In this document: positions 4,679-57,900 of the stretch, piece after piece
Position numbering within the stretch: position 1 is the stretch's first letter
Layout of the letters: every line of letters begins with the position of its first letter
DNA from: an uncultured Pseudomonadales bacterium
GTDB taxonomy: Bacteria; Patescibacteriota; Microgenomatia; UBA1400; PJMF01
Length of the DNA stretch: 57,952 nt
Assembly (NCBI GenBank): GCA_964406075.1
Contig: CAYOQI010000007.1
Span: forward strand, 1 to 57,952
Reading direction: 5' to 3'
Program-made: the position numbers and the translations under genes
The notes under the pieces: generated by a model
Database searches by the model: none
Seen by the model: the letters and a program-made list of their open reading frames with translations, nothing else
What the model was told of the DNA's origin: nothing

Positions 4679-4751
4679 GCTGCGGTACCAGAGCGGTAAA
4701 TGGCTAGGTCTGCAAAACCTCAGTTCAGGGGTTCGAATCCCCTCCGCAGCT
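4679..4751 (+). tRNA. tRNA-Cys (anticodon GCA)
   Basis: Hand-folded cloverleaf. Acceptor GCTGCGG/CCGCAGC, T-arm AGGGG-TTCGAAT-CCCCT, anticodon loop CT-GCA-AA and a U73 discriminator. CCA is not encoded. Confidence 0.9.
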
Positions 4752-4866
4752 CAATATAAAGCTGCCCGATAGGGCAGGTTTGTGTTGAATCTAGTGATGG
4801 GATGACTCGTGCCCGATCAAGCGAACATCCTAAAATAAATATATAATTGTGAGCATGACGAGGGTA

Positions 4867-9059: not shown

Positions 9060-9090
9060 CTCATATCTAGACCAAGGCAACTAGTCCCTA

Positions 9091-9096: not shown

Positions 9097-9103
9097 ATTG
9101 TTT

Positions 9104-10370: not shown

Positions 10371-10460
10371 TTTGCTTTAAATTTCTTCTTCGAACTTTGT
10401 CAAGGTTTCTCTACAACTAACCAATTAACTAACAACTGTCCTCTGTTCACTATTTTTTTT

Positions 10461-10794
10461 GGATCTGGTCTATAAGCCGGATTCTGTATTTGTATAGTCA
10501 TTTCTCTAATGCCTGCAACATTATCACTATGATAGGGAACACATCCATTGAAGTGAAATTCGGCAGTTGCAGCAGGGAGGATTGCCTAGCGGTCTTCCTT
10601 GACAGGGAAGTGCCAACCCAAAAGCTTGGTCGTTTCACTCGGCGCTACCCGATTCGTCACTGTTGCTCTAACTGTCTTCCGATAAATCGGAACCCTCACC
10701 TTTCAGTGAGCACCCTGTGTTCTGCTGTCCGGACTTTCCTCCCCTCATAGTTCCGCTAAGCGGAACGACGTGGGGCGACTACCCGACCAGATCC
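10461..10794 (-). ncRNA. rnpB: RNase P RNA (bacterial type)
   Basis: The minus strand reads GGAUCUGGUC...GAGGGGAGGAAAGUCCGGAC...ACAGAAUCCGGCUUAUAGACCAGAUCC. These are the universally conserved CR-I and CR-V blocks and the P1 pairing GGATCTGGTC/GACCAGATCC. Ends are accurate to about 5 nt. Confidence 0.9.
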
Positions 10795-22247: not shown

Positions 22248-22255
22248 AACTGTAA

Positions 22256-22323
22256 CGTCATCCTGAAAGGTCAAGCTGAATTCAATAACTCATATAATGA
22301 ATGAAGCATGAATATTCAGGACC
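22256..22323. repeat. Type-A hairpin repeat, copy 2
   Basis: CGTCATCCTGAAAGGTCAAG...CATGAATATTCAGGACC, between the metG stop and the tatD start. Confidence 0.85.
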
Positions 22324-23788: not shown

Positions 23789-23834
23789 TGTCATCCTGAA
23801 TAATCTGGTGTAATCACCAGAAATGAAGGATCCC
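23789..23834 (+). repeat. Type-B hairpin repeat, copy 1
   Basis: TGTCATCCTGAATAAT-CTGGTG-taat-CACCAG-AAATGAAGGATCCC. Confidence 0.85.
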
Positions 23835-28168: not shown

Positions 28169-28234
28169 TGTCATCCAGAATAATCTGGTGTAATCACCAG
28201 ATATGAAGCCTGCCTGCAGGCAGGCAAGAATCCC
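28169..28234 (+). repeat. Type-B hairpin repeat, copy 2, carrying an extra 18-nt perfect palindrome
   Basis: TGTCATCCAGAATAAT-CTGGTG-taat-CACCAG as in copy 1, then GCCTGCCTGCAGGCAGGC (28208-28225) inserted before the GAATCCC tail. Confidence 0.8.
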
Positions 28235-36136: not shown

Positions 36137-36150
36137 TTTCATTGAGGTAA

Positions 36151-37263: not shown

Positions 37264-37372
37264 TATTTTCACTAATATATTATGGCATGTAACATGATAC
37301 ATTGCTTCTCCCGCCATCAGCGGGAAACCTGGTCAGCTAGAGGTTAATCAGCCTTAGACTGAAACCTTGATC

Positions 37373-37401
37373 TTGAACCTTGTGCATAGGTACAGCATAA
37401 T
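37373..37401 (+). promoter_or_regulatory. Promoter TTGAAC-17 nt-CATAAT ending 7 nt before the ATG at 37409
   Basis: Spacing counted directly; leaderless-type. Confidence 0.5.
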
Positions 37402-37408
37402 CCCAACT

Positions 37409-38692
37409 ATGAAAATCGCCATCATTGGAGCCGGCTATACCGGATTATCAGCTGCTCATCAGCTTTCTAAATCTGGACATACAGTTGATGTATTCGAGGC
37501 TGAAACTGTTCCTGGAGGATTAGCGGCTGGATTTCAAGAGAAGGAATGGGAATGGTCCGTAGAGAAACACTATCACCATCTTTTTCGTTCAGATAAAGAT
37601 TTTCAAGAACTCCTCGCCGAAACAAACTTGAGTGAAAAACTACAGTACTATTCGGTAAAAACGTCAACATTATACAAAGGTGACGTTTTTCAACTAGACT
37701 CACCCCTTTCACTACTTCAATGTTCAGCCCTTTCTTTTTCAAGTCGCTTAAGAACAGGTGCTACCTTAGCAGGATTGAAATTTATGCCTTGGCATAAAAA
37801 ATTGGATGAAATCACGGCGAAAGAGTTTATTTTAAAAACTATGGGCAAAGAAGTCTGGGAAGTGCTGTGGGAACCACTTTTCATTGGAAAATTTGGTGGA
37901 TACGCCGACAAAATTAATGCGAGTTGGTTCTGGGCTAGGATTCATGTTCGTTCTCAACAACTCGGATATTTATCTGGAGGATTTGGCATGATTGCCCAGG
38001 ATTTAGTGAAGTTTTTAAAAAGTCAAAAAGTTTCAGTACATTTTTCTTCTCCTGTAGAAAAAATAATGAAACAGGATGAGAAATGGAAAGTGAAAATTAA
38101 AAATAAAAAAGAATTAAGTTCATATGATCAGGTCCTGGTTACCGGTCCTCATACTTTACTGCACGCTTTAGTTCCTGAACTCGATCGATCTTATACCCAA
38201 TCACTTAACGGATTAAAAAGTTTAGGAGCCATGACACTTATTTTAGAGCTCGGTTCTCCATTTTTTTCTGATCAAACCTACTGGTTAAATATCAATGAAA
38301 AAGGTTGGCCATTTTTGGCTGTGGTTGAGCACACAAATATGGTTGCTTCATCACACTATGACGGCAAACATTTACTTTACATTGGAAAGTATTTAAAACC
38401 TGATGAGAAACAATTTTCATTAACAAAAGATGAATTACTAAAGTTGTATACACCTTATTTATCAAAAATTTCTCCTAATTTTTCATCGCATATTCGACGA
38501 TCGTGGTTATTTAAAGAACGGTACGCTCAACCGATTGCTGAGGTGAATCATCATAAAAATATTCCTTCAATTAAAACTCCGCTTGATGGGCTTTTTTGGG
38601 CCAGCATGCACCATGTGTATCCATGGGATCGTGGAACGAATTACGCTATTCGATTAGGAAAGGAAGCAACTAGATTAATGCAATCCAGTTAA
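37409..38692 (+). CDS. Rossmann-fold FAD/NAD(P)-dependent oxidoreductase (amine-oxidase/phytoene-desaturase/PPO-like)
   Basis: MKIAIIGAGYTGLSAA...VFEAETVPGGLA dinucleotide-binding motif. 427 aa. Confidence 0.65.
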   Translation: MKIAIIGAGYTGLSAAHQLSKSGHTVDVFEAETVPGGLAAGFQEKEWEWSVEKHYHHLFRSDKDFQELLAETNLSEKLQYYSVKTSTLYKGDVFQLDSPLSLLQCSALSFSSRLRTGATLAGLKFMPWHKKLDEITAKEFILKTMGKEVWEVLWEPLFIGKFGGYADKINASWFWARIHVRSQQLGYLSGGFGMIAQDLVKFLKSQKVSVHFSSPVEKIMKQDEKWKVKIKNKKELSSYDQVLVTGPHTLLHALVPELDRSYTQSLNGLKSLGAMTLILELGSPFFSDQTYWLNINEKGWPFLAVVEHTNMVASSHYDGKHLLYIGKYLKPDEKQFSLTKDELLKLYTPYLSKISPNFSSHIRRSWLFKERYAQPIAEVNHHKNIPSIKTPLDGLFWASMHHVYPWDRGTNYAIRLGKEATRLMQSS

Positions 38693-38976
38693 TCTTCATT
38701 CTTCATAAGAAGTTATTAACAACTGCAAAACTTAATGAAGTAACTTTTACCTTGTATCTTGCACCCTACCCCTTATTCCCCTCATAATGATCTAATTCGA
38801 AAGAGCCTGTTTGAAAAGTCCCTTTCTTTCGAAAGACAGTCAGGTTCGAGAAAAAAAGAGTGCAGAACGACGAAGGAGTAGCCGAGTCTACTTTAAGGAG
38901 TGATAAACACTTTTTTACCGAATCCTGCTGTATTGCAGATGAATGCGACTTTTCAATCAGGCTCTCAAATAAGACC

Positions 38977-40716: not shown

Positions 40717-41474
40717 TGTGTTTTCTTAGCCGTGATAACAAGCACTGATCCCCACATTGAACCAGCTGAATATTCCAAATGATCAATTTTTTCGGCCAAC
40801 TTCCAACTGACGCCACTAATCCAAGGAGCAACTCCACACTTTGTCCCAATGTAGGTCACTTCAAATCCTGTTTTCATGAGTAAAGATCTAAGCAAATCGG
40901 GAGTATAGTGAGAAACATGTTGGTCTCCATCAAGATGAGGAACCAGATGAAAAGCATCAAGTCCTTTTTCAATCAAAGGCCACAAACTCCGATAATTTGG
41001 AGTTGTGATAAATATTTCCCCACCCTTCTTCAGTAATCTTTGAGATTCACGCAGCAATACTTCGCCTTGGTCAAAATAGATGTGTTCGATCAACTCTAAA
41101 CAATAAATTTTATCGACAGGTTTATGAATTGAAAATTTTTCATCAACTAACGCTTTTATAAAGGTTAAGTTCTTTTTTTTGAATTGTTTCTGAGCAAATT
41201 TCATCGCACGCGTGCTTCCATCAATCCCATACACTTCAGCACCTGAATTAGCCAAGAAATCACTGATGACACCAGATCCACAACCGATGTCTAATATCAC
41301 ATCTTTATTTTTCGGAGGGAGCACTCGCTGAATCGTTGTTTGTTTTGAGGTATGCCAAAAGCGTTGAACTGAGCTTGAAGAACTCAACGCCTTAAATTGA
41401 TAATCACCCGCAATTTCAATTGCATCACCTTTTCGCCGGCGAGTGTTCTGAACTACCTTACCTTTTTTTTTCAT
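40713..41474 (-). CDS. Class I SAM-dependent methyltransferase
   Basis: Motif I ILDIGCGSGVISDFLA and the post-I VYGIDG. The start is at 41474 or 41495. Confidence 0.75.
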   Translation of the reverse strand: MKKKGKVVQNTRRRKGDAIEIAGDYQFKALSSSSSVQRFWHTSKQTTIQRVLPPKNKDVILDIGCGSGVISDFLANSGAEVYGIDGSTRAMKFAQKQFKKKNLTFIKALVDEKFSIHKPVDKIYCLELIEHIYFDQGEVLLRESQRLLKKGGEIFITTPNYRSLWPLIEKGLDAFHLVPHLDGDQHVSHYTPDLLRSLLMKTGFEVTYIGTKCGVAPWISGVSWKLAEKIDHLEYSAGSMWGSVLVITAKKTH

Positions 41475-42405
41475 GAGTGAGAATCTCTCGTACAATAAAT
41501 AAAGGACGTTTCTTCACTTCTGAAACCAGTACTCCTATGTACTCAGCCAGAATGCCGAACAACACAAATTGTACGGAAAACAAGAAACTAATCAGGACAA
41601 CTGTGGTGGTGTAACCTGGAATCGTTAGTCCAAGGTACTTCATAATGATCGAAAATATACCAACTAATAAGCTACCAAAACCAACAATTAATCCAATCAC
41701 AACAGACAATCGAAGTGGAACATGAGAAAACGCAATCAATGCTTCAGAACTGAGATTAAAAAGTGAAAAGTGCGAATACTTGGTTTTTCCAAAACGTCTA
41801 TTTGGGGCAGTGAAAGAAATAAGTTTTTGTCTAAATCCTAAAGTTTGAATAAGTGCTCGTGTGAATCTTGAGACTTCTCCGTAATCTTTCACTAAATGAT
41901 CTGCAACTCTTCGTGAAATCAGGAAAAAATCACTCGAATTGTGGTGGATCGTATTTCGTCCCGAAAAATTTAATAATCGATAGAACAAAGCATTTTCAAA
42001 CTTGCGTAACAAGGAAGCCTCAGATGAATGAATTCGTTGCATGATGACGATCTGTGCCCCTTCTTTTGAGGCTTTAATCATTTCTGGAAGATATGACGGA
42101 GGATGTTGAAAGTCAGCATCCATGCAAATGATGCTCTCACCTTTTGCAAAAGAAATTCCTGCAGTCATAGCTGCTTCATGGCCATAATTTCGAGAAAACA
42201 TAATGCCTGAAACCAACGGATTTTTTCGAACTATTGACTCAATTTCATCTTCACTACCATCTGTACTGCCATCGTTCACAAAAATAATTTCGTATGAAAA
42301 TTTGTTTAAAATTTCTTTTAAAGAAGAATACAGTTCTTTGATATTTTGCTCTTCGTTAAAGACTGATATCACAATACTAATTTGTGGTAGGGTTTGAGGT
42401 TTCAC
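41458..42405 (-). CDS. Polyprenyl-phosphate glycosyltransferase, GT2 (ArnC/GtrB/DPM1-like) with a C-terminal TM pair
   Basis: ISIVISVFNEEQNI, IIFVNDGSTDGS, SRNYGHEAA and MDADFQHPP, plus two C-terminal TM helices. GTG start. Confidence 0.8.
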   Translation of the reverse strand: MKPQTLPQISIVISVFNEEQNIKELYSSLKEILNKFSYEIIFVNDGSTDGSEDEIESIVRKNPLVSGIMFSRNYGHEAAMTAGISFAKGESIICMDADFQHPPSYLPEMIKASKEGAQIVIMQRIHSSEASLLRKFENALFYRLLNFSGRNTIHHNSSDFFLISRRVADHLVKDYGEVSRFTRALIQTLGFRQKLISFTAPNRRFGKTKYSHFSLFNLSSEALIAFSHVPLRLSVVIGLIVGFGSLLVGIFSIIMKYLGLTIPGYTTTVVLISFLFSVQFVLFGILAEYIGVLVSEVKKRPLFIVREILTHEKKR

Positions 42406-42443
42406 GAATATGTATAATAGTTGTTTATACGAAATTCTAACAT

Positions 42444-44453
42444 ATGGACGTTATCATCTGGTCTTTGACTCTCATCGTCTTTCAGTTCATTTTTCTGCCT
42501 TTTTCGGTATATTTGTTTAAATCACTCAATTTTAGAGGCATTTTACTCAGCAAATTAATTGGAATACTCTTCATTTCGTTCTCAATTTGGTTTTTCGGAT
42601 CATTACACATTTTAGCTTTTTCTCGATTTTCTTTGCTGATCTTACTCGCAGTTGCTGCAATACTGAATGGGAGATTACTTCAAAAAAATCTGACAATTCG
42701 CAATTTTCTTTTTTCTCACAAGAGAAAAATTATTTTGACTGAACTTGTATTCTTCTTGCCTTTTCTCATCTGGGTCATTCTTCGAATGTTTAATCCTCAC
42801 ATCGATAATTTTGAAAAATTTATGGATTTCGGCTTTGTCACAACTATTTTACGCTCAGAGTATTTTCCACCCCAAGACTTATGGTTCTCTGGTGAACATA
42901 TCAATTACTACTACTTTGGACACCTTGTTTCTGCCGTGTTAATTAAACTAAGCGGAGTCTCCCCAACAATTGGATATAACCTCATGATGGCCACCATAGT
43001 TGGGTTAAGCTGTACGGCCACTTTTACACTGGGCTCTACATTCGCTAGCTATTTAAAAAAATCGTTTCGTGCTCAAGTTTTTGTTGGAATTATCTCAACT
43101 TTATTTGTTAACTTTGCCGGGACACTTTTTACTTTTGGGTTTTTATTTGAAGAAAGATTAGAACCATTTTGGTTTTGGCGATCCATCAGACTCATTCCTG
43201 GAGCTATTCATGAATTCCCACAATACAGTTTTGCTGTCTCAGATTTGCATGCACACATGCTCAATATCCCCTTTGTCTTACTCGTATTATGCTCACTAAT
43301 GAACATCTGGTACCTACCTTTCTTACCGAAATTGAATTCAATTAAAAAGCACATCCCACACTTGGTCATCCACGGATGGATTCTCGGAATTTGTTTTATG
43401 ACCAGCGCTTGGGACCTTCCAATCTATTTAGGCGTATCAGGTTTAGCTTTTTTCTTTAAAAGAATACTGAATGGGAAAACAGTCCTGCACGGAATGCTTG
43501 GTAGTTTGATTGAGTTTGTTATCGTCATTTTGGGAATTATTGTCAGCACGCTTTTATTTGTTGTGAAGTTTGATTTCAGCATTTCTCAAGGTGTGCACTT
43601 GGTTTACTCACATACAGAGCTTATTCATTACTTCACTCTTTGGGCGCCACCACTGATAACAATTGTATTTGGTTTTTGCTTTTGGTTTTTTTCATGGAAA
43701 AAAGAAAAATTGGAATCGACGTATGTATTTCTTTTTTTACTCGCCGGCTGGGGAGTATTGATGACACTTATTCCAGAAATTATTTATTTAAAAGATATTT
43801 ACGGTGGTGATTTTTACCGCGGAAATACCATTCTCAAGTTTTATTATCAAGCGTTTATTATTCTCGGTGTCGTCTCTTCTGTTTTGATTTGTAAAATATT
43901 TTTGAGTCGACCGAAAAAAATCATTCGTCTTCTTTTACTTCTTCCAGTAGCAATGTGGATTGCATGCTTGATCTATCCATTTCAAATAATTCCTGCCTAT
44001 TACAATCAATTTACTATGAACCAAGGTTTGGATGGCGCTCTTTTTATTCAGATGTATCATCCCGAAGATTATGAAACCATTAATTGGCTAAATGAAAATG
44101 TCAACGGTCAGCCTATTGTGCTCGAAGCTGCCGGCGATAGTTACAGTTACGATAATAGAATTTCAGTCTTTACTGGACTCCCTACTGTCCAAGGATGGTT
44201 TGTTCACGAATGGTTATGGAGAGGTGGTTCTGAGAAACCTGGAAAAAGAGCGAATGATGTCAGATCAATATATGAAAGTGGTAATCTTGAGGAAATTCAA
44301 AGACTCATTTCTGAGTACAACATTGAATATCTATATATCGGAAATATTGAACGCTCAAAGTATCCAACTCTCCAAGAATCAATTTTTGATAGACTTGGTT
44401 CAGTGGTATTTCAAAGTGGAAACAGCAAGCTCTATAAAATAATGAGGAACTAA
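42444..44453 (+). CDS. DUF2298 / chlor_Arch_YYY-family polytopic membrane protein (GT-C-like, function unknown)
   Basis: 669 aa with more than 12 TM segments, the eponymous GEHINYYYFGH motif, and a C-terminal soluble domain. Confidence 0.6.
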   Translation: MDVIIWSLTLIVFQFIFLPFSVYLFKSLNFRGILLSKLIGILFISFSIWFFGSLHILAFSRFSLLILLAVAAILNGRLLQKNLTIRNFLFSHKRKIILTELVFFLPFLIWVILRMFNPHIDNFEKFMDFGFVTTILRSEYFPPQDLWFSGEHINYYYFGHLVSAVLIKLSGVSPTIGYNLMMATIVGLSCTATFTLGSTFASYLKKSFRAQVFVGIISTLFVNFAGTLFTFGFLFEERLEPFWFWRSIRLIPGAIHEFPQYSFAVSDLHAHMLNIPFVLLVLCSLMNIWYLPFLPKLNSIKKHIPHLVIHGWILGICFMTSAWDLPIYLGVSGLAFFFKRILNGKTVLHGMLGSLIEFVIVILGIIVSTLLFVVKFDFSISQGVHLVYSHTELIHYFTLWAPPLITIVFGFCFWFFSWKKEKLESTYVFLFLLAGWGVLMTLIPEIIYLKDIYGGDFYRGNTILKFYYQAFIILGVVSSVLICKIFLSRPKKIIRLLLLLPVAMWIACLIYPFQIIPAYYNQFTMNQGLDGALFIQMYHPEDYETINWLNENVNGQPIVLEAAGDSYSYDNRISVFTGLPTVQGWFVHEWLWRGGSEKPGKRANDVRSIYESGNLEEIQRLISEYNIEYLYIGNIERSKYPTLQESIFDRLGSVVFQSGNSKLYKIMRN

Positions 44454-45889
44454 GACGTTTTGCTTTCTTTCTCTTCTAAATACATATCATCGTCGTTTAT
44501 ATCCCACACACTTTGAATTGTTTCTCCTGCCAAAATATTACGGGCAACATAAAAGCCTGACAAAATTGAGTGATCTTGATTGTTATATCGGAACAGCCCA
44601 CCTCTTCCACATGGAAAAATATTTTTAAAGTTCTGGATAAACACTTTCGCTTGTAAAAGTGGCGTCTGATAATCAAAATTGTAAACTGGATATGCGTTGT
44701 TCACTCGGTATACAAAACCATCAATAATATCTGTGGATTGGACTAAACCAAGTTGAACGATTTCTTGCTTTGCGAGAGCAAGCAGTTTCGCATCAGACAT
44801 CTTCCACAACTCATCATTTTTACTCGCAAAGTATTCCATACCAATTGGAGTATTATTTTCACCTTCCGGAATCATATAAGGACTCCAATTTCTGAAATTT
44901 TGAATTCTTCCGACTTTAACTTGTGGCTCATGAATATAAATCCATTGATCAGGAAATGGGTTGTTTTTGATGATTAAATTAACAGTAATAAAATTCCGAA
45001 ATTGTAATCTTTTTATCTGTCTCTTTAGGGAAGCTGATGGTTTTAGAAGAAGAATCAACTCATTAAATGGCATTGTGGAGACAAGAGAATCCACACCAAT
45101 TTTTTGCTGATTTCCATCAGCACCAACGTATCCAATACTTGTCACTTGAGATGAGTTTTTCTTGAGATTAATTTCATTGACAAAAGTATTAAAATAAAAA
45201 TGTACACCTTTTTTCTCGAGCATTTTCTGTAATTTTTTGTATAACATTCCTGGACCATATTTCGGATAGTGAAATGATTTAATAGCAGTTTTTGCTCCCA
45301 TCGGAGACTTCGTAATTGCCGAAATCATGGCTTTCCCTAAATTAAAATTTTGAATTCTTTGAGCGGCCCAATCTGCTGATAATTCTGATGTCGGTATACC
45401 CCAAACTTTTTCTGTATATGATTTAAAAAATATTTTGAATAATCGATCTCCAAACCTATTTGAAACCCATTGGTCAAAAGTTTTTTCTTCAGAATGTTTA
45501 TGAAGTTGACGAGATAACCAGCTGAAGACGATTTGAATTGATGCGATTATTCCTAAGTTATTTAGTGCATTTCCTGCACTCAGCGGATAATCAAAAAAAA
45601 GTTGGTTGTAATAAATTCGAGACAAGCGTTTTCGACGCAACATGTCTTTTTCTAAAAAGTTTTCGTAAAATTTTTTAATTTCCGGAAATTTTGTGTAGAA
45701 GCGATGACCTCCCAAATCAAATCGATATCCTTGAAAATCTAAGGTTTTAGAGATTCCTCCAACCTGATCAGAACACTCAAAAATATGAATATCATACTCA
45801 TCAAGTTTTCTTTTTTTGAGAAACTCGTACGCAGTAGCAAGCCCCGCCGGTCCCGCACCAATAATGATTACTTTTTTCTTTCTATTCAT
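44450..45889 (-). CDS. Rossmann-fold FAD/NAD(P)-dependent oxidoreductase (UDP-galactopyranose-mutase/PPO superfamily-like)
   Basis: KKVIIIGAGPAGLATA...IFECSDQVGGIS...GGHRFY. The ATG at 45889 is preferred over the GTG at 45919. Confidence 0.65.
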   Translation of the reverse strand: MNRKKKVIIIGAGPAGLATAYEFLKKRKLDEYDIHIFECSDQVGGISKTLDFQGYRFDLGGHRFYTKFPEIKKFYENFLEKDMLRRKRLSRIYYNQLFFDYPLSAGNALNNLGIIASIQIVFSWLSRQLHKHSEEKTFDQWVSNRFGDRLFKIFFKSYTEKVWGIPTSELSADWAAQRIQNFNLGKAMISAITKSPMGAKTAIKSFHYPKYGPGMLYKKLQKMLEKKGVHFYFNTFVNEINLKKNSSQVTSIGYVGADGNQQKIGVDSLVSTMPFNELILLLKPSASLKRQIKRLQFRNFITVNLIIKNNPFPDQWIYIHEPQVKVGRIQNFRNWSPYMIPEGENNTPIGMEYFASKNDELWKMSDAKLLALAKQEIVQLGLVQSTDIIDGFVYRVNNAYPVYNFDYQTPLLQAKVFIQNFKNIFPCGRGGLFRYNNQDHSILSGFYVARNILAGETIQSVWDINDDDMYLEEKESKTS

Positions 45890-46032
45890 AACCTTCGTTG
45901 ATTTTTTAAAATCGGACACAACAATAAGAATGATATACCAAAATAAAACTCATATGTAAGTCCGTATTTCGGATGTGTTTGTACAATGACTGTCTGCTTT
46001 TTTTTTATTGATAAATTCGTTAGAGTCATTAC

Positions 46033-47994
46033 ATGCACAAAAAAGTGTCAAATGAATTATTGTTGAAACTTCGGTCGCAGTCATTTTTCTTGATGGGTTT
46101 AGGCTTCACTTTTCTTTTTTTAATCCTGGGATATGTAGCTCACGCATTTCATTTCTTAAATATATGGACAGGAAATTCTTTAACTTGGATAAGCTGGATC
46201 CTCAGTATGTTGTTTGCTCTGATTACATGTACTGTGAATGGGGAAAATCTTCGATCTACACTACCTCGTTTCTCACGAACCACACTCATTTTATTTTTTT
46301 GCAGTTTGATATTCTTTGTTTCTTTTTATTTCTATAACTTTTCAATTGCACCTTGGAACCAAGATGGATTGTTTGATGATGCTGCATGGGATATCTACTT
46401 CATGAAAAGATATGTTTTAAGTGATGAACCTTTTCAAGCAGCCTTTTATGATCACGGCACTTCAAGAGAAACTTTCTTTCACTACTATTTAGCACTAATG
46501 CTGGGTATTTTTGGAATGAACGTCAGAGTTTTTAATATTGCAGTGGTAGTACTCTCATTTTTCACTTTATTTTTTACAACACTTCTTATTCAGCATCTAT
46601 TTAAGAAAAAATGGATCTCTATTTTAAGTCTACTCGTATTAGGAACACTTCCATTTCAGTTTTTGTATAGCTACGTCGGTCACCGATACGTCATCAATGC
46701 ACCTTTAACTATGATTTCACTGTACTTTGTCGTGACAAGTTTTTCATATCGTTCAACAAAACGAGGGGTGATTGGTGGAATTTTTGCTGGATTTAGTCTC
46801 GCAAGCGCCATCATGGGAAAACAATATATTTTAGCTTTACTCTCTTCCGGACTGTTTTTAGCTCTTCTTCAAATCAGAACTCTTGAATGGAAAAAAATAC
46901 TGCCTCCATTTTTTTCTATAGTACTTGGATTCTTGTGTGCCAGCGCGCCACTTTTATCCTATATTGCTTTTAATCCTATTTATTTTCTCCGAGAAAAAGG
47001 ACTAAGTAGCGAATTTCGGCAAAAAATTTCCGAAGAAGGCGTTGCAGGGATCACACCTTATTTTCAACAATTAAGCGAAACTTTTTTCAGTCTAGATACA
47101 GGATTGAGATGGTTTCTTCCAGATTATGTTCCAGTTCCCTATCCGTACATGTTTCTAATCATCCTGGGGTCAATAATTTTGTTGAAGCGAAAGCAGTTCT
47201 TGTTTTTAGCCATGGGCACAATTCCAATTCTAGGAGCACTCATAGCGGGTGCTCATGATTTTCGGTATTTGCATGCAGTTCCCATTTGGATAATTGCACT
47301 CGCCTCTTGCTTTGATATCGGTTCTCAGTGGTTGGAAAAATGGAAATTAAAAAAACAAAACTTGGTTCTTCCCATCATTTTTCTTGCATCACTAATCATC
47401 GTTGTGTGTGCTGGATTTATCCCAAACACCAAATATGTTTTAAAAATCTCAAAACAAACAGGTTCATTGTTTCACTTTAATCAACATGTCGTTGCCTCAT
47501 CTCGATATCTAAGAGATATCGTTGCGAATGTTCCCAACCCATCTACTCAAGTTCGGGCAAATGAATTTGACAAACTGAATGAATTTTCACCTTCGCCTTA
47601 TCAAACATATATTTGTCAGGAGTGGGGTTATGCCATTCCTCATCTCTTTTTATACGATTACTCAGACACAGAGATTTTAAAACTGTGTGATAACTTGCCA
47701 TTTAATCTTATGCCTATTGAAGATATTTTTCTCCATAATGCAAAAACGATCGCTGAACTTAATTCTCAAAAAGATGTGAAATTTATTTGGCAAGTAACTG
47801 AAAAAACAGAACCAGTCATCCGAGTATTCAAAACATTTGAAAGATTAGGTCATGCGGAAACGCTTCGCTCATCACATCTAGATGTAACTTTTGAGTATTA
47901 CGTGTTAACTATTCCAAAAGAAAACATAGAAATATTGAAAAACGAAATTCACACTGTTCCGGAGCTTACTTTTGAAGAAACTCTGCTGAATTAA
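46033..47994 (+). CDS. GT-C-like polytopic membrane protein, ArnT/GT39/GT83-like
   Basis: 653 aa. The first periplasmic loop is GLFDDAAWDIYFMKRY (acidic motif). About 12 TM segments and a C-terminal soluble domain. Confidence 0.5.
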   Translation: MHKKVSNELLLKLRSQSFFLMGLGFTFLFLILGYVAHAFHFLNIWTGNSLTWISWILSMLFALITCTVNGENLRSTLPRFSRTTLILFFCSLIFFVSFYFYNFSIAPWNQDGLFDDAAWDIYFMKRYVLSDEPFQAAFYDHGTSRETFFHYYLALMLGIFGMNVRVFNIAVVVLSFFTLFFTTLLIQHLFKKKWISILSLLVLGTLPFQFLYSYVGHRYVINAPLTMISLYFVVTSFSYRSTKRGVIGGIFAGFSLASAIMGKQYILALLSSGLFLALLQIRTLEWKKILPPFFSIVLGFLCASAPLLSYIAFNPIYFLREKGLSSEFRQKISEEGVAGITPYFQQLSETFFSLDTGLRWFLPDYVPVPYPYMFLIILGSIILLKRKQFLFLAMGTIPILGALIAGAHDFRYLHAVPIWIIALASCFDIGSQWLEKWKLKKQNLVLPIIFLASLIIVVCAGFIPNTKYVLKISKQTGSLFHFNQHVVASSRYLRDIVANVPNPSTQVRANEFDKLNEFSPSPYQTYICQEWGYAIPHLFLYDYSDTEILKLCDNLPFNLMPIEDIFLHNAKTIAELNSQKDVKFIWQVTEKTEPVIRVFKTFERLGHAETLRSSHLDVTFEYYVLTIPKENIEILKNEIHTVPELTFEETLLN

Positions 47995-48822: not shown

Positions 48823-50184
48823 ATGAAAATAAAACCTCTTGATCAATGGATTACTGAACATTCATCACTTCTACTTGGGATAATTCTCCTTTTTTCCTTT
48901 ATCGTTCGAATTTGGAGAGTTCAGATCCCACCAACATACTACTTCGACGAAGTGTATCACGCCGTGACTTCAAAGTTAGTAGCGAGAAATGATGAACGAG
49001 CATACGAATGGTGGCATGCACCGGTTGAACCAGATACAGCAATCGAATGGACACATCCACCTTTAGCCAAACTCTTCAAAGCAACTGGGATTCTTATTTT
49101 TGGTGAAAACTCTTTTGGTTGGAGAATTAGTTCCGTGATTTTTGGAGTTCTGTGTATATTCATGGTGTTCTCAGTTTCTGAAACGTTGTTCAAATCAAAA
49201 CCTATTTCACTCTTAGCCGCCTTTCTTTTCTCGATGGATGGTTTACCTCTGACGCAATCTCGCATCGCGATGAACGATATCCATTTACTTTTTTTCATGT
49301 TGCTCTCGGTAAAAATGTATTTGTTGTTTAAAGAATCACAACCTTGGACAATCGAATGGAAAAAATACTTAATTCTCAGCGGTGTCGCTTTTGGATTGAC
49401 GTTCGCTTCTAAATGGTCTGGAATTGTTATTCTGGGAATTTTTATTGCCGATCAATTTTTGACTTTTCTCAAAGAGAAGCATATTTCGATTAAAATGATC
49501 ATTGTCTATTTCTTCGCCTGGATTGCTCTTCCTATTTTCGTGTACTCGCTTTCATTTTCACAAATGTTTTTACAGGGAAAAAGTCTCGATCACTTTAGAG
49601 AATTGAATGGCCAAATGTATTGGTATCACTCTGGTTTAGTTGCTACCCATCCGTATCAATCGAAACCATTGCAGTGGGTGTTGAACCTGCGTCCAGTCTG
49701 GCTCTATGTCGATTATTCGAAGCCAGATCAAATTGCTAATATGTATGCTCAAGGCAATACTGCTTTATATTTATTCGGTTTTTTTGGCATTCTCGTGTAT
49801 CTGGTGAGATCATTGTTGCACTCCACTTCAATCATTACATCACATATCAAAGAAACTTTTATTTTCAAACTTGAACTCCATAAAATTACGCCTCAACTGC
49901 TTTTTGTAATCATGGCGTACTTTATTGTTTGGTTGCCGTATACATTAAGTCCCCGCATCATGTTCTTTTATCACTACTTGCCTGCCGTTCCGTATCTAAG
50001 TATAGCTTCAGCATTTTTTATATATAAATTACTTCAGTTCGATGACATACGAAAAACGATAGCATTAACTGTACTGAGTTTAATTATTGTGAACTTTGTT
50101 CTGTTCTATCCAAATTGGACTGGTATGTACGTTTCAACTGCTTTCAGAGATAATATTTATGGTTTTATGCCATCTTGGAAGTAA
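48823..50184 (+). CDS. GT39-family protein O-mannosyltransferase-like (PMT) phospholipid-carrier-dependent glycosyltransferase
   Basis: The loop-1 motif YYFDEVYHAVT (DE), HPPLAKL, and polytopic with a C-terminal 4-TM module. Confidence 0.7.
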   Translation: MKIKPLDQWITEHSSLLLGIILLFSFIVRIWRVQIPPTYYFDEVYHAVTSKLVARNDERAYEWWHAPVEPDTAIEWTHPPLAKLFKATGILIFGENSFGWRISSVIFGVLCIFMVFSVSETLFKSKPISLLAAFLFSMDGLPLTQSRIAMNDIHLLFFMLLSVKMYLLFKESQPWTIEWKKYLILSGVAFGLTFASKWSGIVILGIFIADQFLTFLKEKHISIKMIIVYFFAWIALPIFVYSLSFSQMFLQGKSLDHFRELNGQMYWYHSGLVATHPYQSKPLQWVLNLRPVWLYVDYSKPDQIANMYAQGNTALYLFGFFGILVYLVRSLLHSTSIITSHIKETFIFKLELHKITPQLLFVIMAYFIVWLPYTLSPRIMFFYHYLPAVPYLSIASAFFIYKLLQFDDIRKTIALTVLSLIIVNFVLFYPNWTGMYVSTAFRDNIYGFMPSWK

Positions 50185-52220: not shown

Positions 52221-52258
52221 ATCTAAATTACTCCCTAGCTCCTAACCTCTAGTCACTA

Positions 52259-52264
52259 TATAAT
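52259..52264 (+). promoter_or_regulatory. -10 box TATAAT 7 nt upstream of the gltX ATG within a conserved CTAGTCACTATATAATTCC cassette
   Basis: ctagtcacta-TATAAT-tcctgcc-ATG. The cassette is repeated at 55421-55440. Confidence 0.5.
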
Positions 52265-52271
52265 TCCTGCC

Positions 52272-53790: not shown

Positions 53791-55386
53791 ATGAATCGAT
53801 CATTTTCATTGAAACAGCTTTTTCTACGAATTTTAAAAAAATCGGATAAACACGAAGGTCTTTTAATTTTATTATGCCTTCATATTTTACTTCGTATACC
53901 CAACCTTTTTGAGCCGTATTGGTATGGCGACGAAGCTATATATCTGACCATTGGTCAGGCTCTTCGAAATGGTTTAACCTTGTATCAAGATACGATCGAC
54001 CATAAAACTCCGCTGATTTATTTCTTTGCCATGCTCGCGCCAACTCAAATCTGGTTCAGAATAATTCTTATGGTCTGGATGACCGGAGCAATTTGGTGCT
54101 TCTTCACAGCACTGAAAAACTTTTCTTTCTCAATTCTGCAAAGAAACCTATCAACACTGATTTTTATTCTTTTCACAACTTTACCTTGGCTTGAAGGTCA
54201 TATTCCAAATGGTGAACTTTTTGTCATGGGATTTATTTGTATTGCACTTTGGCTCTTTTCTAGAATACCTGAGATGCAGGAAACGTTCTCTTTCAATTAT
54301 CTGAAAAAAGAGACACCATCGACTGAAACAAGTATCACTAATGTGAAGTTACTGTTTTTAACAGGAGTATTTTGTAGTTTAGCAATATTGACGAAAGTAC
54401 CAGCACTCTTTGATGTGGCTGGTATCCTTGTGACTGGATGTATCTTGTTGTGGTCCCAAAAACGATTCACTAAAAAGCAAATTTTAATTTTCTTTCAACG
54501 GTATTTTATTTTGATATCAGGAGTGATGTTACCCATCATCTTGAGTTTTGTATATTTCTTTTTAAAAGGCGCTGGACAAGACTATATCGATTTTGCTCTG
54601 CTCTACAATTTTAAATATGCCGGCAGTTGGAATCTTCCTTTTTCACAACCGCAACTTGTCTGGTTGCTTTCATTACAAGGGAAAATCTTCACTCTTTTCT
54701 TAACCTTTATTGTCATGTTTTTCTTACGACGAAGAATAAAACCCTTGTATCAGTGGCTTGCAATCTGGTGCATGGCATCATTAGTTGGGGCGAATCTTTC
54801 ACTGCGTCCATATCCACATTACTTTCTGCAAGTTATTCCACCGTTAGCAATTCTGTTCGGTTCATACGCATATAAAAAAATCTTGAGACCTTCATTTGAA
54901 AATGGAATTGGCATCCTTTTTGTTGTGCTTTCACTTTCTGTATGGACCCTGATTGGATTTAGCCCGTACTCAACAAAAAAGTATTATCAAGATTTTTTCC
55001 AATTAATTACTCAAAAAATATCACGTGAAGAATACAATCAACGATTCAATGCGTTTATGGCGGACAACGAACTCGCAACAGCAATACTCCATCAAACCGA
55101 AGAAAAAGAAATTTTTATTTGGGGCACAAATCCTATGCTATACGCCCAATCCCGAAAAGTGCCAATTGGCAGATTTACAGTTGCATTTCATATTCAAGAT
55201 TTCCCTGGTGCATTTGAAGAGACTGAAAAAGCCTTGTATGAAAAAACACCTGAATTTATTGTGGTGATGAAAAATGAACAAATTAAATTTCCTGAATTTG
55301 ATGCGTTTCTTTTACTCAACTATATTCCGTACAAAGATCTCGAACACATGAAAATCTACCGCCGATCACGTCTTTCTCTGCTGTAA
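53791..55386 (+). CDS. GT-C-like polytopic membrane protein, ArnT/PMT_2-like
   Basis: 531 aa. YWYGDEAIYLTIGQALRNGLTLYQDTIDHKTPLIYF loop motif. Paralogue of the 34490 protein. Confidence 0.55.
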   Translation: MNRSFSLKQLFLRILKKSDKHEGLLILLCLHILLRIPNLFEPYWYGDEAIYLTIGQALRNGLTLYQDTIDHKTPLIYFFAMLAPTQIWFRIILMVWMTGAIWCFFTALKNFSFSILQRNLSTLIFILFTTLPWLEGHIPNGELFVMGFICIALWLFSRIPEMQETFSFNYLKKETPSTETSITNVKLLFLTGVFCSLAILTKVPALFDVAGILVTGCILLWSQKRFTKKQILIFFQRYFILISGVMLPIILSFVYFFLKGAGQDYIDFALLYNFKYAGSWNLPFSQPQLVWLLSLQGKIFTLFLTFIVMFFLRRRIKPLYQWLAIWCMASLVGANLSLRPYPHYFLQVIPPLAILFGSYAYKKILRPSFENGIGILFVVLSLSVWTLIGFSPYSTKKYYQDFFQLITQKISREEYNQRFNAFMADNELATAILHQTEEKEIFIWGTNPMLYAQSRKVPIGRFTVAFHIQDFPGAFEETEKALYEKTPEFIVVMKNEQIKFPEFDAFLLLNYIPYKDLEHMKIYRRSRLSLL

Positions 55387-55430
55387 ATCTAGAAGCAAAC
55401 TAACCCCTAGTCCCTAACACCTAGTCACTA

Positions 55431-55436
55431 TATAAT
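55431..55436 (+). promoter_or_regulatory. -10 box TATAAT 6 nt upstream of the ATG at 55443 within the conserved cassette
   Basis: ctagtcacta-TATAAT-tccctc-ATG. Confidence 0.5.
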
Positions 55437-55442
55437 TCCCTC

Positions 55443-55811
55443 ATGGCTCTCGTATCATTTCGTCAAGAAGTTCAACCTTTTCAAGCACCTCAGGAACTGA
55501 AAACTCCCCTTCTTCTTTGTCTACTTATTGTTGCTTTAAGTGGATTGATAACAGTTACCACGTATTCCCGGACACAACCTGAAATTCCTTTATTTTATTC
55601 CTTAGCACAGCCAGAACAACAACTTGTGAATAAACAATGGCTTTTCCTCTTTCCAATCGTATCTGCGGCTATTTTGGTCATTCACCGAATTTCGATTCAA
55701 TTTTTACGAAAACATGATGAAAAACTGACCAAGATTTTTACCTGGATGACTCTCTTTCTTTTAGCAGTACTAAACTTTGCTCTTGTTAGAATTTTATATG
55801 TAATTGGATAG
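55443..55811 (+). CDS. Hypothetical small membrane protein (3 TM)
   Basis: 122 aa and hydrophobic. First gene after the conserved promoter cassette, upstream of the WecA-like gene. Confidence 0.5.
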   Translation: MALVSFRQEVQPFQAPQELKTPLLLCLLIVALSGLITVTTYSRTQPEIPLFYSLAQPEQQLVNKQWLFLFPIVSAAILVIHRISIQFLRKHDEKLTKIFTWMTLFLLAVLNFALVRILYVIG

Positions 55812-55849
55812 CGCTGTTACTTTTTACTCTTTAATTATTACTTTCACTC

Positions 55850-56938
55850 ATGTTTTACTACATCCTCGCTCCTTTCATGAGTTTCTTGCTTGCAGCATAT
55901 ATTGCTCCCGCTGTCATTCGTTGGTACAAGAAGAATGACTGGATAGATCATCCTGATACCCATCGTCACGTCAAAGTTGTTCATACTTCCCCAATTCCAA
56001 GAGGTGGTGGAATCGTAATTGGTGTAGGAATACTTGCTAGTAGTCTTCTTTTTTTGCCAATGACAGCTCAAACGATTGCAATTTTATTGAGTGTCCTCGT
56101 ATTAACAATCATGGGAACATATGATGACATTTTTGATCTCAATCCCTACTTCAGATTTATTATTGGAGGTCTGGTTGCAGTGTTAGTGGTCGCTAGTGGA
56201 ATCACGGTTCAATATATTACAAACCCACTGGGCGAAGGAGTCATATTTCTCAATCAGCTGACAGTTTCACTTCCAATCGCTGGTCAAATAAAATCCTTTA
56301 GCATCTTCTCAAGCATCATTGGAATACTCTGGATTTTGTGGAATATGAATGTTGTGAACTGGTCAAAAGGGGTTGATGGTCAGCTTCCTGGAACAGTTGC
56401 CATCGCCGCATTTTTCATTGCCTTGCTAGCCAATCGATTCAATGGGGATCCCACTCAAACTCCAGTGATATTACTGTCATTAATCACTGCAGGCGCATAC
56501 CTGGGATTACTGGTTTGGAATATTTATCCTCAAAAAATGCTCCCTGGATATGGAGCTGGTTCTTTAGGTGGATTTTTACTGGCCGTCTTATCGATATTAT
56601 CTGGAGCCAAATTAGCTACTGCACTCTTAGTTTTAGCAATACCTACGGCCGATGCAGTATTCACCATTCTTCGTCGATTAGCTCGGAGAAAATCTCCATT
56701 TTGGGGAGACCGCGGTCATCTGCATCATAAACTGCTTGATGTTCTCGGATGGTCAAAACGTAAGATCGCCCTTTTTTATTGGTGTACCACTGCTTTTTTT
56801 GGTATCATTGCGCTTCAATTGAAGCCTGAACAAAAACTCTTTACAATAGTACTTATCATTAGTCTGGTGTTTGGATTTTTAATATGGGCCAAACTCTTTA
56901 TTTCCTTCTCAAAACGGCCCGCCCGAGACAATGGCTAA
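55850..56938 (+). CDS. Glycosyltransferase family 4 polyprenyl-phosphate sugar-1-phosphate transferase (WecA/MraY family)
   Basis: 362 aa with about 10 TM segments. Motifs: MGTYDDIFDL (DD motif), NMNVVNWSKGVDGQ (N-x-x-N-x-x-DG-x-DGL-like) and GDRGHLHHKLL (HHH-like). Confidence 0.75.
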   Translation: MFYYILAPFMSFLLAAYIAPAVIRWYKKNDWIDHPDTHRHVKVVHTSPIPRGGGIVIGVGILASSLLFLPMTAQTIAILLSVLVLTIMGTYDDIFDLNPYFRFIIGGLVAVLVVASGITVQYITNPLGEGVIFLNQLTVSLPIAGQIKSFSIFSSIIGILWILWNMNVVNWSKGVDGQLPGTVAIAAFFIALLANRFNGDPTQTPVILLSLITAGAYLGLLVWNIYPQKMLPGYGAGSLGGFLLAVLSILSGAKLATALLVLAIPTADAVFTILRRLARRKSPFWGDRGHLHHKLLDVLGWSKRKIALFYWCTTAFFGIIALQLKPEQKLFTIVLIISLVFGFLIWAKLFISFSKRPARDNG

Positions 56939-57819
56939 AAAATCTGGCGGTCTATGCAGCTCTGATTTTTTCAGGATTCTTTTTCTTTGAATTTCCTTTG
57001 TATCTTTTGACAGTAACTTCGTCATTCATTCTGTTTTGTATATTGTCCTCATGCATTTACATTATCAATGATATTGTCGATGCTGAAACAGACCGCAATC
57101 ATCCGTTCAAAAAGAAACGTCCGATTGCATCGGGTGAACTTCCGATTCCGACAGCACTATTCGCAGCTTGTGTCGGATTCGTGATTGTCTTCTTTCTCTC
57201 ATTATCGTTATCTCCATACTTTTTCATTTTGTGTTTTGCATACATCGTTTTACAAATTCTTTATTCTTTTCGGCTAAAACATATCCCTATTTTAGATGTC
57301 CTTTCAATTGCTGGTGGTTTCATTATCCGTATTTATGCGGGAGCGGTGGTGGTGAATCTGCACATGAGTGTCTGGTTTTTACTAACAGTTCTTTCTGCCT
57401 CACTCTTCTTAGCCGTAGGAAAAAGACAAAGCGAACGCACTCTTCTTGAAGGTCACTTAGGTCCAACCCGAAGAACCCTTCAACATTATTCCCAACGATT
57501 GCTTGATATTTATACTGGCATGTTTGCCAACACCACGTGGCTTACTTATGCACTCTATGCGTATCAAAGGGATGAGTTTGAACCAACAGGAAGTGTTCTG
57601 AAGGCATTCACGTTTCTTCCACGAACTTTTACTTCCGAAAAATGGTTAATGATCACAGTCCCATTAGTTATTTATGGAGTGATGAGATATTTACAACTCG
57701 TTTATGAAGCCAACCAGGGTGAATCACCAGAGCGTGTCTTATTACGTGATAAACCACTACTCGGTGCTGTCGTTATTTGGGGACTGATGGTGATGTTTAT
57801 TATTTACGGAATTGGATAA
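56884..57819 (+). CDS. UbiA-family prenyl-phosphate phosphoribosyltransferase-like protein (decaprenyl-phosphate 5-phosphoribosyltransferase-like)
   Basis: The N-terminal ARPRQWLKNL motif and the Asp-rich NDIVDAETDRNHP are characteristic of this UbiA subfamily. It overlaps the upstream gene by 55 nt. Confidence 0.7.
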   Translation: MGQTLYFLLKTARPRQWLKNLAVYAALIFSGFFFFEFPLYLLTVTSSFILFCILSSCIYIINDIVDAETDRNHPFKKKRPIASGELPIPTALFAACVGFVIVFFLSLSLSPYFFILCFAYIVLQILYSFRLKHIPILDVLSIAGGFIIRIYAGAVVVNLHMSVWFLLTVLSASLFLAVGKRQSERTLLEGHLGPTRRTLQHYSQRLLDIYTGMFANTTWLTYALYAYQRDEFEPTGSVLKAFTFLPRTFTSEKWLMITVPLVIYGVMRYLQLVYEANQGESPERVLLRDKPLLGAVVIWGLMVMFIIYGIG

Positions 57820-57827
57820 TCAATTAT

Positions 57828-57900
57828 CGTCATCCTGAAAGATCAAGTCGAATTCGTCGAATAATCAAAACAATAAGATGAGACATGAATGTTCAGGACC
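57828..57900. repeat. Type-A hairpin repeat, copy 3
   Basis: CGTCATCCTGAAAGATCAAG...CATGAATGTTCAGGACC immediately after the UbiA-like stop. Confidence 0.85.

Follow-up and report, generated by a model that had tools for sequence, protein, structure and literature searches.

Three neighbouring genes at the end of a 57,952-bp contig from an uncultured Patescibacterium (CAYOQI010000007.1; the contig at its full length is called the window below) encode a small membrane protein with three transmembrane (TM) helices, a GT4 protein and a UbiA-superfamily protein (55443-57819). We consider it moderately probable that these genes are the distal part of a conserved, Microgenomates-type envelope-glycosylation array that makes and uses a lipid-linked pentofuranose. 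The UbiA protein itself is, with high probability, a phosphoribosyltransferase of the subfamily of Mycobacterium tuberculosis Rv3806c, the decaprenylphosphoryl-5-phosphoribose synthase (DPPRS), its activity being predicted from sequence. The contig is complete at the length given, has ~37% G+C and originates from a wastewater metagenome. An earlier note on this DNA had described three open reading frames (ORFs) in 55443-57819, and the ORF list contains all of them there, on the + strand (Table 1).

Profile searches separated the 311-residue UbiA protein from the prenyltransferases of its superfamily. It matched the generic UbiA family in Pfam (PF01040, 5.3e-21), passed the cut-off of the NCBIfam model NF008978 (decaprenyl-phosphate phosphoribosyltransferase; 230 bits vs. 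207) and fell slightly under that of NF008977, a model of the same name (227 bits vs. 234). Scores were 161 bits for the actinobacterial-type model NF008976 (cut-off 474) and 151 bits for the fused HAD-UbiA model PRK08238 (cut-off 351), and the UbiA, MenA, CyoE, ChlG and GGGP-type models gave 15–51 bits. The NF008978 score thus exceeded that of any non-DPPRS UbiA model by at least 79 bits and those of the quinone, haem and chlorophyll types by ~180 bits. In the PDB, the top match was Rv3806c (8j8j; E = 4.5e-39, 138 bits, 33.8% identity over 225 residues), followed at a great distance by ApUbiA, a 4-hydroxybenzoate octaprenyltransferase (4od4; E = 0.003, 20 bits). An exhaustive HMMER search returned 1,772 clusters (50% identity) at E ≤ 1e-30.

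The residues that bind the substrates of Rv3806c are kept as well. According to cryo-EM and mutagenesis, the pyrophosphate of phosphoribosyl pyrophosphate (PRPP) is held in that enzyme by R22, K87, R90, Y138, K143 and K208, Mg and ribose are bound by N73, D77 and Q135, the 5'-phosphate by K28, Y70 and Y157, and decaprenyl phosphate by K28, Y157 and K191; ordinary UbiA prenyltransferases do not share the phosphoribose site (PMC10994848). Pairwise alignment to Rv3806c gave R13, K76, R79, Y127, K132 and R197 as the pyrophosphate-site equivalents in the window protein, N62, D66 and Q124 as those for Mg and ribose, K19, Y59 and F146 as those for the 5'-phosphate, and K19 and K180, both invariant in the homologues, as those of the lipid-phosphate ligands K28 and K191. 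Among 24 homologues from the Candidate Phyla Radiation (CPR), all ligand residues were invariant (R13, K76, R79, Y127 and K132 among them) save at two positions: that of Q124 has Q in 18 and H in 6, and that of R197 has K or R in 20. The sole change to be named is Y157 to F146, and Phe occurs there also in some mycobacteria. The loop II motif N-D-x-x-D-x-x-x-D is present (N62, D63, D66, D70), as is R-x-x-E in loop IV (R181, E184), the pair targeted by mutation in Citrobacter ORF15. The two motifs that the earlier note quoted were found in the protein, ARPRQWLKNL at residues 12–21 and NDIVDAETDRNHP at residues 62–74, and its view of a DPPR-synthase-like enzyme, as opposed to a quinone or haem prenyltransferase, held on all three counts: model scores, PDB matches and ligand residues place the protein with Rv3806c, and none groups it with quinone or haem prenyltransferases.

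Public labels tell a different story for some relatives. Eleven of the 23 listed homologues with JGI names (e.g. P0019, P0041, P0050, P0057 and P0101) are called '4-hydroxybenzoate polyprenyltransferase', Pfam places the window protein no more precisely than in the generic UbiA family, and a ubiA gene of Saccharimonas, possibly a homologue of the window gene, has been read as one of ubiquinone synthesis (PMC11484240). These points could be taken to mean that the window protein is an aromatic or quinone/haem prenyltransferase and that its adjacency to GT4 and GT-C genes is coincidental. Given the low scores of the prenyltransferase models and of ApUbiA, the full set of phosphoribose and 5'-phosphate residues and a linkage to GT4 at every locus compared (see below), that reading is close to refuted. 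The label is likely a systematic misannotation of a phosphoribosyltransferase clade, which could mislead work on quinone synthesis in the CPR; to read a CPR ubiA of the DPPRS subfamily as evidence of ubiquinone synthesis is almost certainly wrong. We also observed a DPPRS-like protein of 453 residues in another locus (L085, 4004-5365), with 39% identity to the window UbiA and an N-terminal extension of ~150 residues. It falls under all three DPPRS cut-offs, and its gene adjoins a squalene/phytoene-synthase-family gene and a DUF362 gene, a context unlike the glycosylation clusters.

We next consider the genes that accompany UbiA. For comparison we used 84 related loci, 4 of them from assemblies and 80 from GTDB species representatives (the best 80 of 175 matches), nearly all of the latter labelled Patescibacteria or lineages inside it. 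The best named homologues of the operon proteins likewise come from Woesebacteria, Pacebacteria, the Microgenomates group, Cerribacteria and Daviesbacteria, all of them Patescibacteria. In an ORF census GT4 lay directly upstream of UbiA at all 84 loci. The gene for the 3-TM protein lay between a GT-C gene and GT4 at 76, and a homologue of the 531-residue GT-C protein of the window lay directly upstream of the 3-TM gene at 72. Farther out, a membrane GT2 of ~500 residues preceded the GT-C gene directly at 53–55 loci, and a PMT-family GT-C followed UbiA directly at 37 (census and BLAST in both cases). In most relatives the 3-TM ORF abuts or overlaps the GT-C ORF; the GT-C, 3-TM, GT4 and UbiA genes are probably one operon there. 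The PMT-type enzyme probably belonged to the ancestral cluster. The claim that the UbiA gene adjoins GT-C enzymes is therefore borne out, by the GT-C fold upstream and by the PMT-type protein downstream in relatives.

The 531-residue protein, publicly a 'hypothetical protein', was recognised as a GT-C by its predicted structure. Its sequence gave only a faint PMT match in Pfam, and a sequence-profile search against the PDB found nothing at E up to 1. An AlphaFold2 model built with 42 homologues had a mean predicted local distance difference test score (pLDDT) of 92.4, and in a Foldseek search of the PDB with this model the top 22 matches were all GT-C-fold proteins or the GPI-transamidase proteins related to them. 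The best was ArnT (5f15/5ezm; E = 4e-6 to 1e-5, TM-score ~0.5), and AglB, STT3, Pmt4, ALG12, PglB, PimE and AftD were also among them. With ArnT (GT83), PMT (GT39) and oligosaccharyltransferases the protein shares the fold and an Asp-Glu pair in the first external loop, D47-E48 of 'YWYGDE', which is invariant in the 42 homologues; sequence identity to GT-C-fold enzymes is only 12–16%. The donor of ArnT is an undecaprenyl-phosphate-linked pentose, and on the strength of the model the 531-residue protein is likely a user of lipid-linked pentose.

The 122-residue 3-TM protein is an orphan. Alignments show a conserved loop, QPxIPLFYSLAxPxxQLAxKxW, and, in helix 3, an Arg residue; its AlphaFold2 model reached a pLDDT of 88.4. 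A Foldseek search of the PDB with this model gave no match (best E = 0.55) and no Pfam family was assigned, DUF1648 appearing faintly in 4 of 22 members. All 73 homologues are unnamed ('hypothetical' or 'uncharacterized membrane protein'), and the few with organism names are from Patescibacteria. We regard the protein as a candidate accessory protein or flippase. Neither Pfam (E up to 5) nor Foldseek against the PDB supported a specific assignment to the GtrA, SMR or DPM3-like flippases or subunits, and that assignment was rejected.

These components suggest the following pathway. At the cytoplasmic face, UbiA would move 5-phosphoribose from PRPP to polyprenyl phosphate and so form polyprenyl-phosphate-β-D-ribofuranose-5-phosphate, a step for which the homology is strong. 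A phosphatase encoded elsewhere would then take off the 5-phosphate. Such unlinked dephosphorylation is plausible, because a phosphatase-dead mutant of Citrobacter youngae ORF15 still gives some product (PMC11127046). The lipid-linked pentofuranose would be flipped across the membrane, possibly with the aid of the 3-TM protein, the sole local candidate. Outside the membrane, the adjacent GT-C protein or proteins would transfer the pentofuranose (in the simplest case ribofuranose) to a glycan or protein of the envelope. As a WecA-like phosphoglycosyltransferase whose metal site is altered, the GT4 protein most likely serves to prime the acceptor glycan on polyprenyl phosphate. Translation of GT4 and UbiA would be coupled, and the long overlap of their genes would be a subclade effect of the position of a stop codon inside conserved UbiA codons.

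Several results weigh against this explanation. Domain absence was judged on the 46 window ORFs of at least 120 residues and on the annotated neighbourhood clusters of the relatives. A PAP2 or HAD/PRP phosphatase was not found among these ORFs or in the conserved neighbourhood, and the UbiA protein carries no extra (phosphatase) domain. Nor did the ORFs or the annotated clusters contain DprE1 (FAD_binding_4) or a DprE2-type short-chain dehydrogenase/reductase (SDR), which agrees with the earlier note's statement that no DprE1-type epimerase is visible. No match to the flippase families MATE, GtrA and SMR turned up, either in the window or among the recurrent neighbours. Our view is that of a 58-kb contig that ends 133 nt past the UbiA stop; a PRPP synthase and any unlinked DprE1/DprE2 would lie beyond it. 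None of the RNA runs searched for the locus carries it, all matches being to wastewater and groundwater DNA metagenomes. Because CPR genomes generally preserve synteny well, adjacency is weaker functional evidence there than in other bacteria. Finally, two active-site Asp residues are replaced in the GT4 protein, and to judge by its sequence the catalytic activity of this protein is uncertain.

The missing epimerase bears on which sugar is made. In the systems described by Kelly et al. (PNAS 2024), the lipid-linked product is ribofuranose where there is no epimerase, xylofuranose with an ORF13-type epimerase and arabinofuranose with DprE1/DprE2 (PMC11127046). Because no epimerase is linked to the window UbiA, ribofuranose is the default sugar, and it is reasonable to assume ribofuranose rather than arabinofuranose, the rest of the genome leaving arabinofuranose possible. 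A rival explanation keeps the first step and has arabinofuranose, another epimer or an oxidised pentose transferred, after enzymes from other loci have converted the lipid-linked ribose; candidates are classical DprE1/DprE2 or, as an analogue outside the vanillyl-alcohol-oxidase fold, the PRK07233 and PRK07208 flavoproteins of the window. Only 58 kb of the genome are visible, which leaves room for such enzymes, and both flavoproteins (425 and 569 bits) adjoin GT-C-like membrane proteins. Furthermore, among five DPPRS-like loci of greater divergence, three (L086, L088 and L089; 35–39% identity) have a PRK07233 flavoprotein next to UbiA, together with GT-C genes, and L088 also has an SDR epimerase. 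Within the clade, however, the association disappears: the flavoprotein genes are 11–18 kb from UbiA in the window, and none of their type lies within 10 kb of UbiA at any of the 84 loci. Conversely, none of 35 full-length metagenome homologues of the flavoprotein (~12 loci with long flanks) has a DPPRS-like gene nearby, and there is no DprE1- or DprE2-type domain in the window. Since epimerase-free systems add ribofuranose (PMC11127046), we judge the conversion to another pentose unlikely. That a flavoprotein substitutes for DprE1 in the GT4-UbiA operon has a low probability.

The flavoproteins are of interest in their own right. A GT-C-like or DUF2298 neighbour was present in ~15 of the 35 metagenome PRK07233 homologues (loci L090-L123), and the pairing of flavoprotein and GT-C is a recurrent module. 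In the window, the region 33252-47994 contains two amine-oxidase-fold flavoproteins ('hypothetical' in NCBIfam; PRK07233 and PRK07208), two GtrB/PgfS-like GT2s, a methyltransferase, a DUF2298/Chlor_Arch_YYY protein and large polytopic proteins of 413, 548, 618 and 653 residues that belong to no family. The 'swarm' of GT-C proteins that the earlier note saw beside UbiA shrinks: three are supported (53791-55386 by fold, 48823-50184 by PMT/PMT_2 and 42444-44453 by DUF2298), and the other four are polytopic proteins without a family.

The GT4 protein (362 residues, ~11 TM helices) belongs to the polyprenyl-phosphate N-acetylhexosamine-1-phosphate transferase (PNPT) superfamily. A profile of its clade matched MraY (2e-15) and human DPAGT1 (3e-5) in the PDB. 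The best NCBIfam model was TIGR02380 (WecA), at 77 bits vs. a cut-off of 326, and identity to E. coli WecA is 25%. The WecA features D90/D91, N-x-x-N and D159 are kept, together with the loop-5 signature (R264-R265, S271-P272, D276-R277, H279 and H281-H282). In contrast, WecA D156, the first Asp of N-x-x-N-x-x-D-G-x-D-G, is replaced by K173 ('NWSKGVDGQ'), and the Mg-ligand Asp of G-D-x-G-S (D217 in WecA, D265 in Aquifex aeolicus MraY, D252 in DPAGT1) by Y234 ('PGYGAGS'); in alignments to three MraY structures and to WecA, the column of this Asp had Tyr or a gap. The Lys and the Tyr are each present in at least 90% of the clade (22–30 aligned members). The description of this protein as WecA-like thus stands for the PNPT fold and the WecA-type HIHH of loop 5, and fails for the two Asp residues, replaced clade-wide, and for the model score. 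By its sequence we would call the protein WecA-like in fold and nucleotide-sugar loop, and not a WecA equivalog. It was also tried as the MraY of the cell, a role ruled out by the score for TIGR00445 (44 bits vs. 192) and by the WecA-type loop 5.

What the two replacements mean for catalysis can be read in two ways. D156 is an active-site residue, and D156C abolishes the function of the Coxiella WecA homologue (PMC5843353); in Bacillus subtilis MraY, D174 and D231 belong to the residues that matter for catalysis (PMC5039524). The GT4 protein could then be a catalytically dead scaffold or partner of UbiA, or carry out a modified, possibly metal-independent phosphotransfer to another acceptor (e.g. 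the phosphoribosyl lipid). The near-uniform Lys and Tyr, the coupling to UbiA in most genomes and the lack of a linked phosphatase would fit this idea, which we nonetheless find rather improbable. The rest of the PNPT set (the DD pair, N170, D176, R-x-x-SP and DR-H-x-HH) is invariant, which argues for an active enzyme, and an alternative acceptor is without precedent. To our knowledge, eukaryotic GPTs also lack an equivalent of D156. In DPAGT1, D252N is 5-fold more active than the wild type and D252A retains 7% of the activity (PMC6218659), and therefore the substitutions in GT4 need not inactivate it. We give still less credence to a bolder proposal, in which GT4 and UbiA are a two-enzyme unit with new chemistry that, with the 3-TM protein and the GT-Cs, builds a lineage-wide housekeeping wall polymer of pentofuranose. 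In such a unit GT4 might dispense with the normal metal site or take the phosphoribosyl lipid of its partner as its substrate; this would account for the lack of a linked 5'-phosphatase. Were this true, the system would be the CPR counterpart of mycobacterial arabinan and not an optional side-chain system.

The end of GT4 and the beginning of UbiA share 55 nt, as the GT4 stop is at 56938 and the UbiA ATG at 56884. The earlier note called an overlap of this length unusual, and it is real; it is also a lineage-specific by-product. The two genes overlap in 63 of the 84 genomes. Long overlaps define a subclade of 32 (55 nt in 26, 64 nt in 5 and 82 nt in 1), shorter ones of 1–34 nt occur in 31 (12 of the ATGA type), and in the remaining 21 there is a gap, which is <30 nt in 16 and 186 nt at most. 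In the subclade, the UbiA start overlaps the conserved Trp codon that ends the last GT4 helix ([A/G/T]TGG), and the GT4 stop (TAA; TGA in one relative) is formed from the W-[L/I]-K codons of UbiA (TGG-NTA-AAR, read as …TAA). Where the middle UbiA codon supplies no TAA or TGA, the GT4 frame extends by 9 or 27 nt. At the first, second and third UbiA codon positions, entropy in the overlap of the long-overlap subclade was 0.82, 0.59 and 1.09 bits; this pattern makes UbiA the constrained frame. Variability is highest at codon position 2 of GT4, the tails of which diverge freely and are unconstrained in their own frame. The upstream UbiA ATG must be used, because R13 and K19, equivalent to the essential R22 and K28 of Rv3806c, lie in the overlap or just beyond it. 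The overlap is best read, from these sequence patterns, as tight translational coupling with a free-riding C-terminal tail on GT4 and not as a dual-coding device. Two other explanations were rejected. A programmed −1 frameshift that fuses GT4 to UbiA does not agree with the lack of a visible slippery heptamer, the short overlap or gap in 52 of the 84 genomes and the unconstrained GT4 tail. A UbiA start downstream of the GT4 stop would delete R13 and K19 from an N-terminus that is conserved in 24 homologues.

How does this operon compare with systems already described? Rv3806c is of the same subfamily as the window UbiA, with the ligand residues kept, and both are encoded beside GT-C glycosyltransferases. 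Mycobacterial arabinogalactan is primed by WecA, and a WecA-type enzyme is thus shared in logic with the mycobacterial decaprenylphosphoryl-arabinose pathway (Rv3806c, Rv3807c, DprE1/DprE2, Rv3789 and GT-C arabinofuranosyltransferases). Unlike in mycobacteria, however, no PAP2, DprE1/DprE2 or GtrA-like Rv3789 is linked to the window UbiA, the GT4 gene is inside the operon and translationally coupled, the organism is a Patescibacterium, and the carrier is presumably of the undecaprenyl type (BacA is encoded at 11582-12397).

The C. youngae system is closer in layout. Its DPPRS homologue makes polyprenyl-phosphate-ribofuranose from PRPP, and a GT-C uses the product outside the cytoplasm (Kelly et al., PNAS 2024, PMC11127046). 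In the O1/O2 loci, with ORF15 (PRP-PPPRS, where PPPRS stands for the polyprenyl-phosphate counterpart of DPPRS), ORF14 (MATE) and ORF12 (GT-C, GT136), the PPPRS lies beside a GT-C and an epimerase is not obligatory, as in the window. The ribofuranose-adding O1 system is likewise without an epimerase, and it shares the loop II and loop IV motifs with the window UbiA. C. youngae differs in having a fused HAD/PRP phosphatase and a MATE protein; the CPR PPPRS is accompanied by neither, and its array has the 3-TM protein and the PNPT instead. The CPR GT-C has no detectable carbohydrate-binding module, in contrast to that of the comparison system. Moreover, the CPR cluster is a conserved core trait (84 species) and the C. 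youngae one a serotype-variable add-on. The Pseudomonas aeruginosa PPPRS (PSPA7_6246-type, for arabinofuranosylation of type IV pilin), which we compared by description only, is stand-alone and non-actinobacterial like the CPR enzyme; it has DprE1/DprE2 homologues and a separate phosphatase, none of which is linked in the CPR window (PMC11127046).

The earlier note had presented an occurrence outside Corynebacteriales as the novelty. This does not hold, since PPPRS, flippase and GT-C systems have been predicted in many other bacteria (PMC11127046) and both NCBI and JGI already name CPR homologues decaprenyl-phosphate phosphoribosyltransferase. Our literature search on CPR DPPRS genes found no paper. 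The operon is, in our verdict, a compositional variant of the known lipid-linked pentofuranose system. Its new features are a coupled PNPT whose active site is altered, an orphan 3-TM protein, the lack of a linked phosphatase, flippase or epimerase, and the status of a conserved core trait of a CPR lineage. Should GT4 prove to be a WecA of the usual kind and the sugar simply ribofuranose, the operon would be of little consequence, as another case of the Kelly-Whitfield scheme.

The cell envelope of Patescibacteria is experimentally almost unknown, and its surface presumably mediates attachment to host cells. The operon points to a concrete component of that envelope, a glycan or glycoprotein bearing ribo- or arabinofuranose, which would occur throughout a large CPR group (at least 175 species-level genomes). 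The clade-wide loss of two active-site Asp residues from a PNPT is, in addition, a natural experiment on metal use by a group of enzymes that are antibiotic targets.

Table 1. Coordinates of the operon, its array partners and other features of the window
Feature	Coordinates	Strand	Basis or remark
UbiA-superfamily polyprenyl-phosphate 5-phosphoribosyltransferase (PPPRS/DPPRS type, predicted), 311 aa	56884..57819	+	NCBIfam, PDB, residue alignment
PNPT-superfamily GT4 (WecA/MraY-like), 362 aa, divergent active site	55850..56938	+	PF00953, 2.5e-19
Overlap of GT4 3' end and UbiA 5' end, 55 nt	56884..56938	+	UbiA in frame −1 relative to GT4
Orphan membrane protein, 122 aa, three hydrophobic helices	55443..55811	+	Helix prediction, AlphaFold2
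GT-C-fold glycosyltransferase (predicted), 531 aa	53791..55386	+	AlphaFold2 model and Foldseek
PMT-family (GT39-like) GT-C	48823..50184	+	PMT, PMT_4TMC and PMT_2 domains
Membrane GT2 (Glyco_trans_2_3), 499 aa	19782..21281	-	Pfam
Repeated promoter-like cassette (…CCTAACNNCTAGTCACTATATAATTCC)	55397..55439	+	Ends 3 nt before the ATG of the 3-TM ORF
Hairpin-forming intergenic element, 70-77 nt	57824..57900	+	Just past the UbiA stop; three copies in the window
PRK07233 flavoprotein	37367..38692		NCBIfam
PRK07208 flavoprotein	44450..45919		NCBIfam
DUF2298/Chlor_Arch_YYY protein	42444..44453		
RNase P RNA, class A	10457..10794	-	109.5 bits
tRNA-Cys(GCA)	4679..4752	+	

Outside the operon, the array has been broken up in the window. 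In relatives such as L003 the ancestral order is TrpR-MetRS-TatD-GT2 (500 residues)-GT-C-small protein-GT4-UbiA-PMT, and TatD, MetRS and TrpR recur farther upstream in relatives. In the window the same genes stand in three separated pieces, TrpR-MetRS-TatD-GT2 at 24679-19782 on the − strand, the PMT gene, and the segment 53791-57819; the lineage has therefore undergone local rearrangements. TatD, a GDP-mannose-dehydratase-like SDR, a Pribosyltran protein and other neighbours were considered as pathway members and rejected: TatD, which is ordinarily linked to metG, is explained by that linkage, and the others are infrequent.

Upstream of the 3-TM gene, the 'conserved promoter cassette' of the earlier note is a real repeat and a putative promoter. 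The cassette is 84% identical over 43 nt to 52225-52267, upstream of gltX. Its 17-mer core occurs three times in the window against 0.13 expected, a count that none of 100 shuffles reached. The third and weaker copy of the core (9080-9096, ACTAGTCCCTATATACT) lies just 5' of the TTG start of an AI-2E transporter ORF at 9098. Analogous paired upstream sequences were present in the relative L001. A TATAAT in the cassette lies 6 nt before the ATG of the 3-TM ORF, and this sequence would suit the promoter of a leaderless or near-leaderless transcript; a generic sigma-70 scan did not pick the cassette. Taken together, the copies suggest a lineage-specific promoter consensus very near start codons, possibly with leaderless mRNAs.

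The element that follows the UbiA stop has two further copies at gene ends (4494-4563 and 22252-22323), with the common form …CGTCATCCTGAAAGGTC…GAATTC…ATGAATATTCAGGACC. All three copies are predicted to form the same nested hairpin (z-scores −2.6 to −4.6), with the outer stem UCCUGAA/UUCAGGA and inner stems that vary yet still pair. No Rfam family matched the element, and the RNase P RNA and tRNA in Table 1 were the sole Rfam/ARAGORN matches in the window. The element probably marks the end of the operon; a terminator, a repeat element and a small RNA are all conceivable. A separate 40-nt repeat (95% identical; TGTCATCCTGAATAATCTGGTGTAATCACCAGAAATGAAG) occurs at 23789-23828 and 28169-28208 and contains an inverted repeat; the core GTCATCCTGAA is common to it and to the 70-nt hairpin element. 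The contig closes (57900-57952) with perfect tandem copies of a 7-nt unit, (CTCTTAA)n, the probable cause of the assembly break so soon after the UbiA stop.

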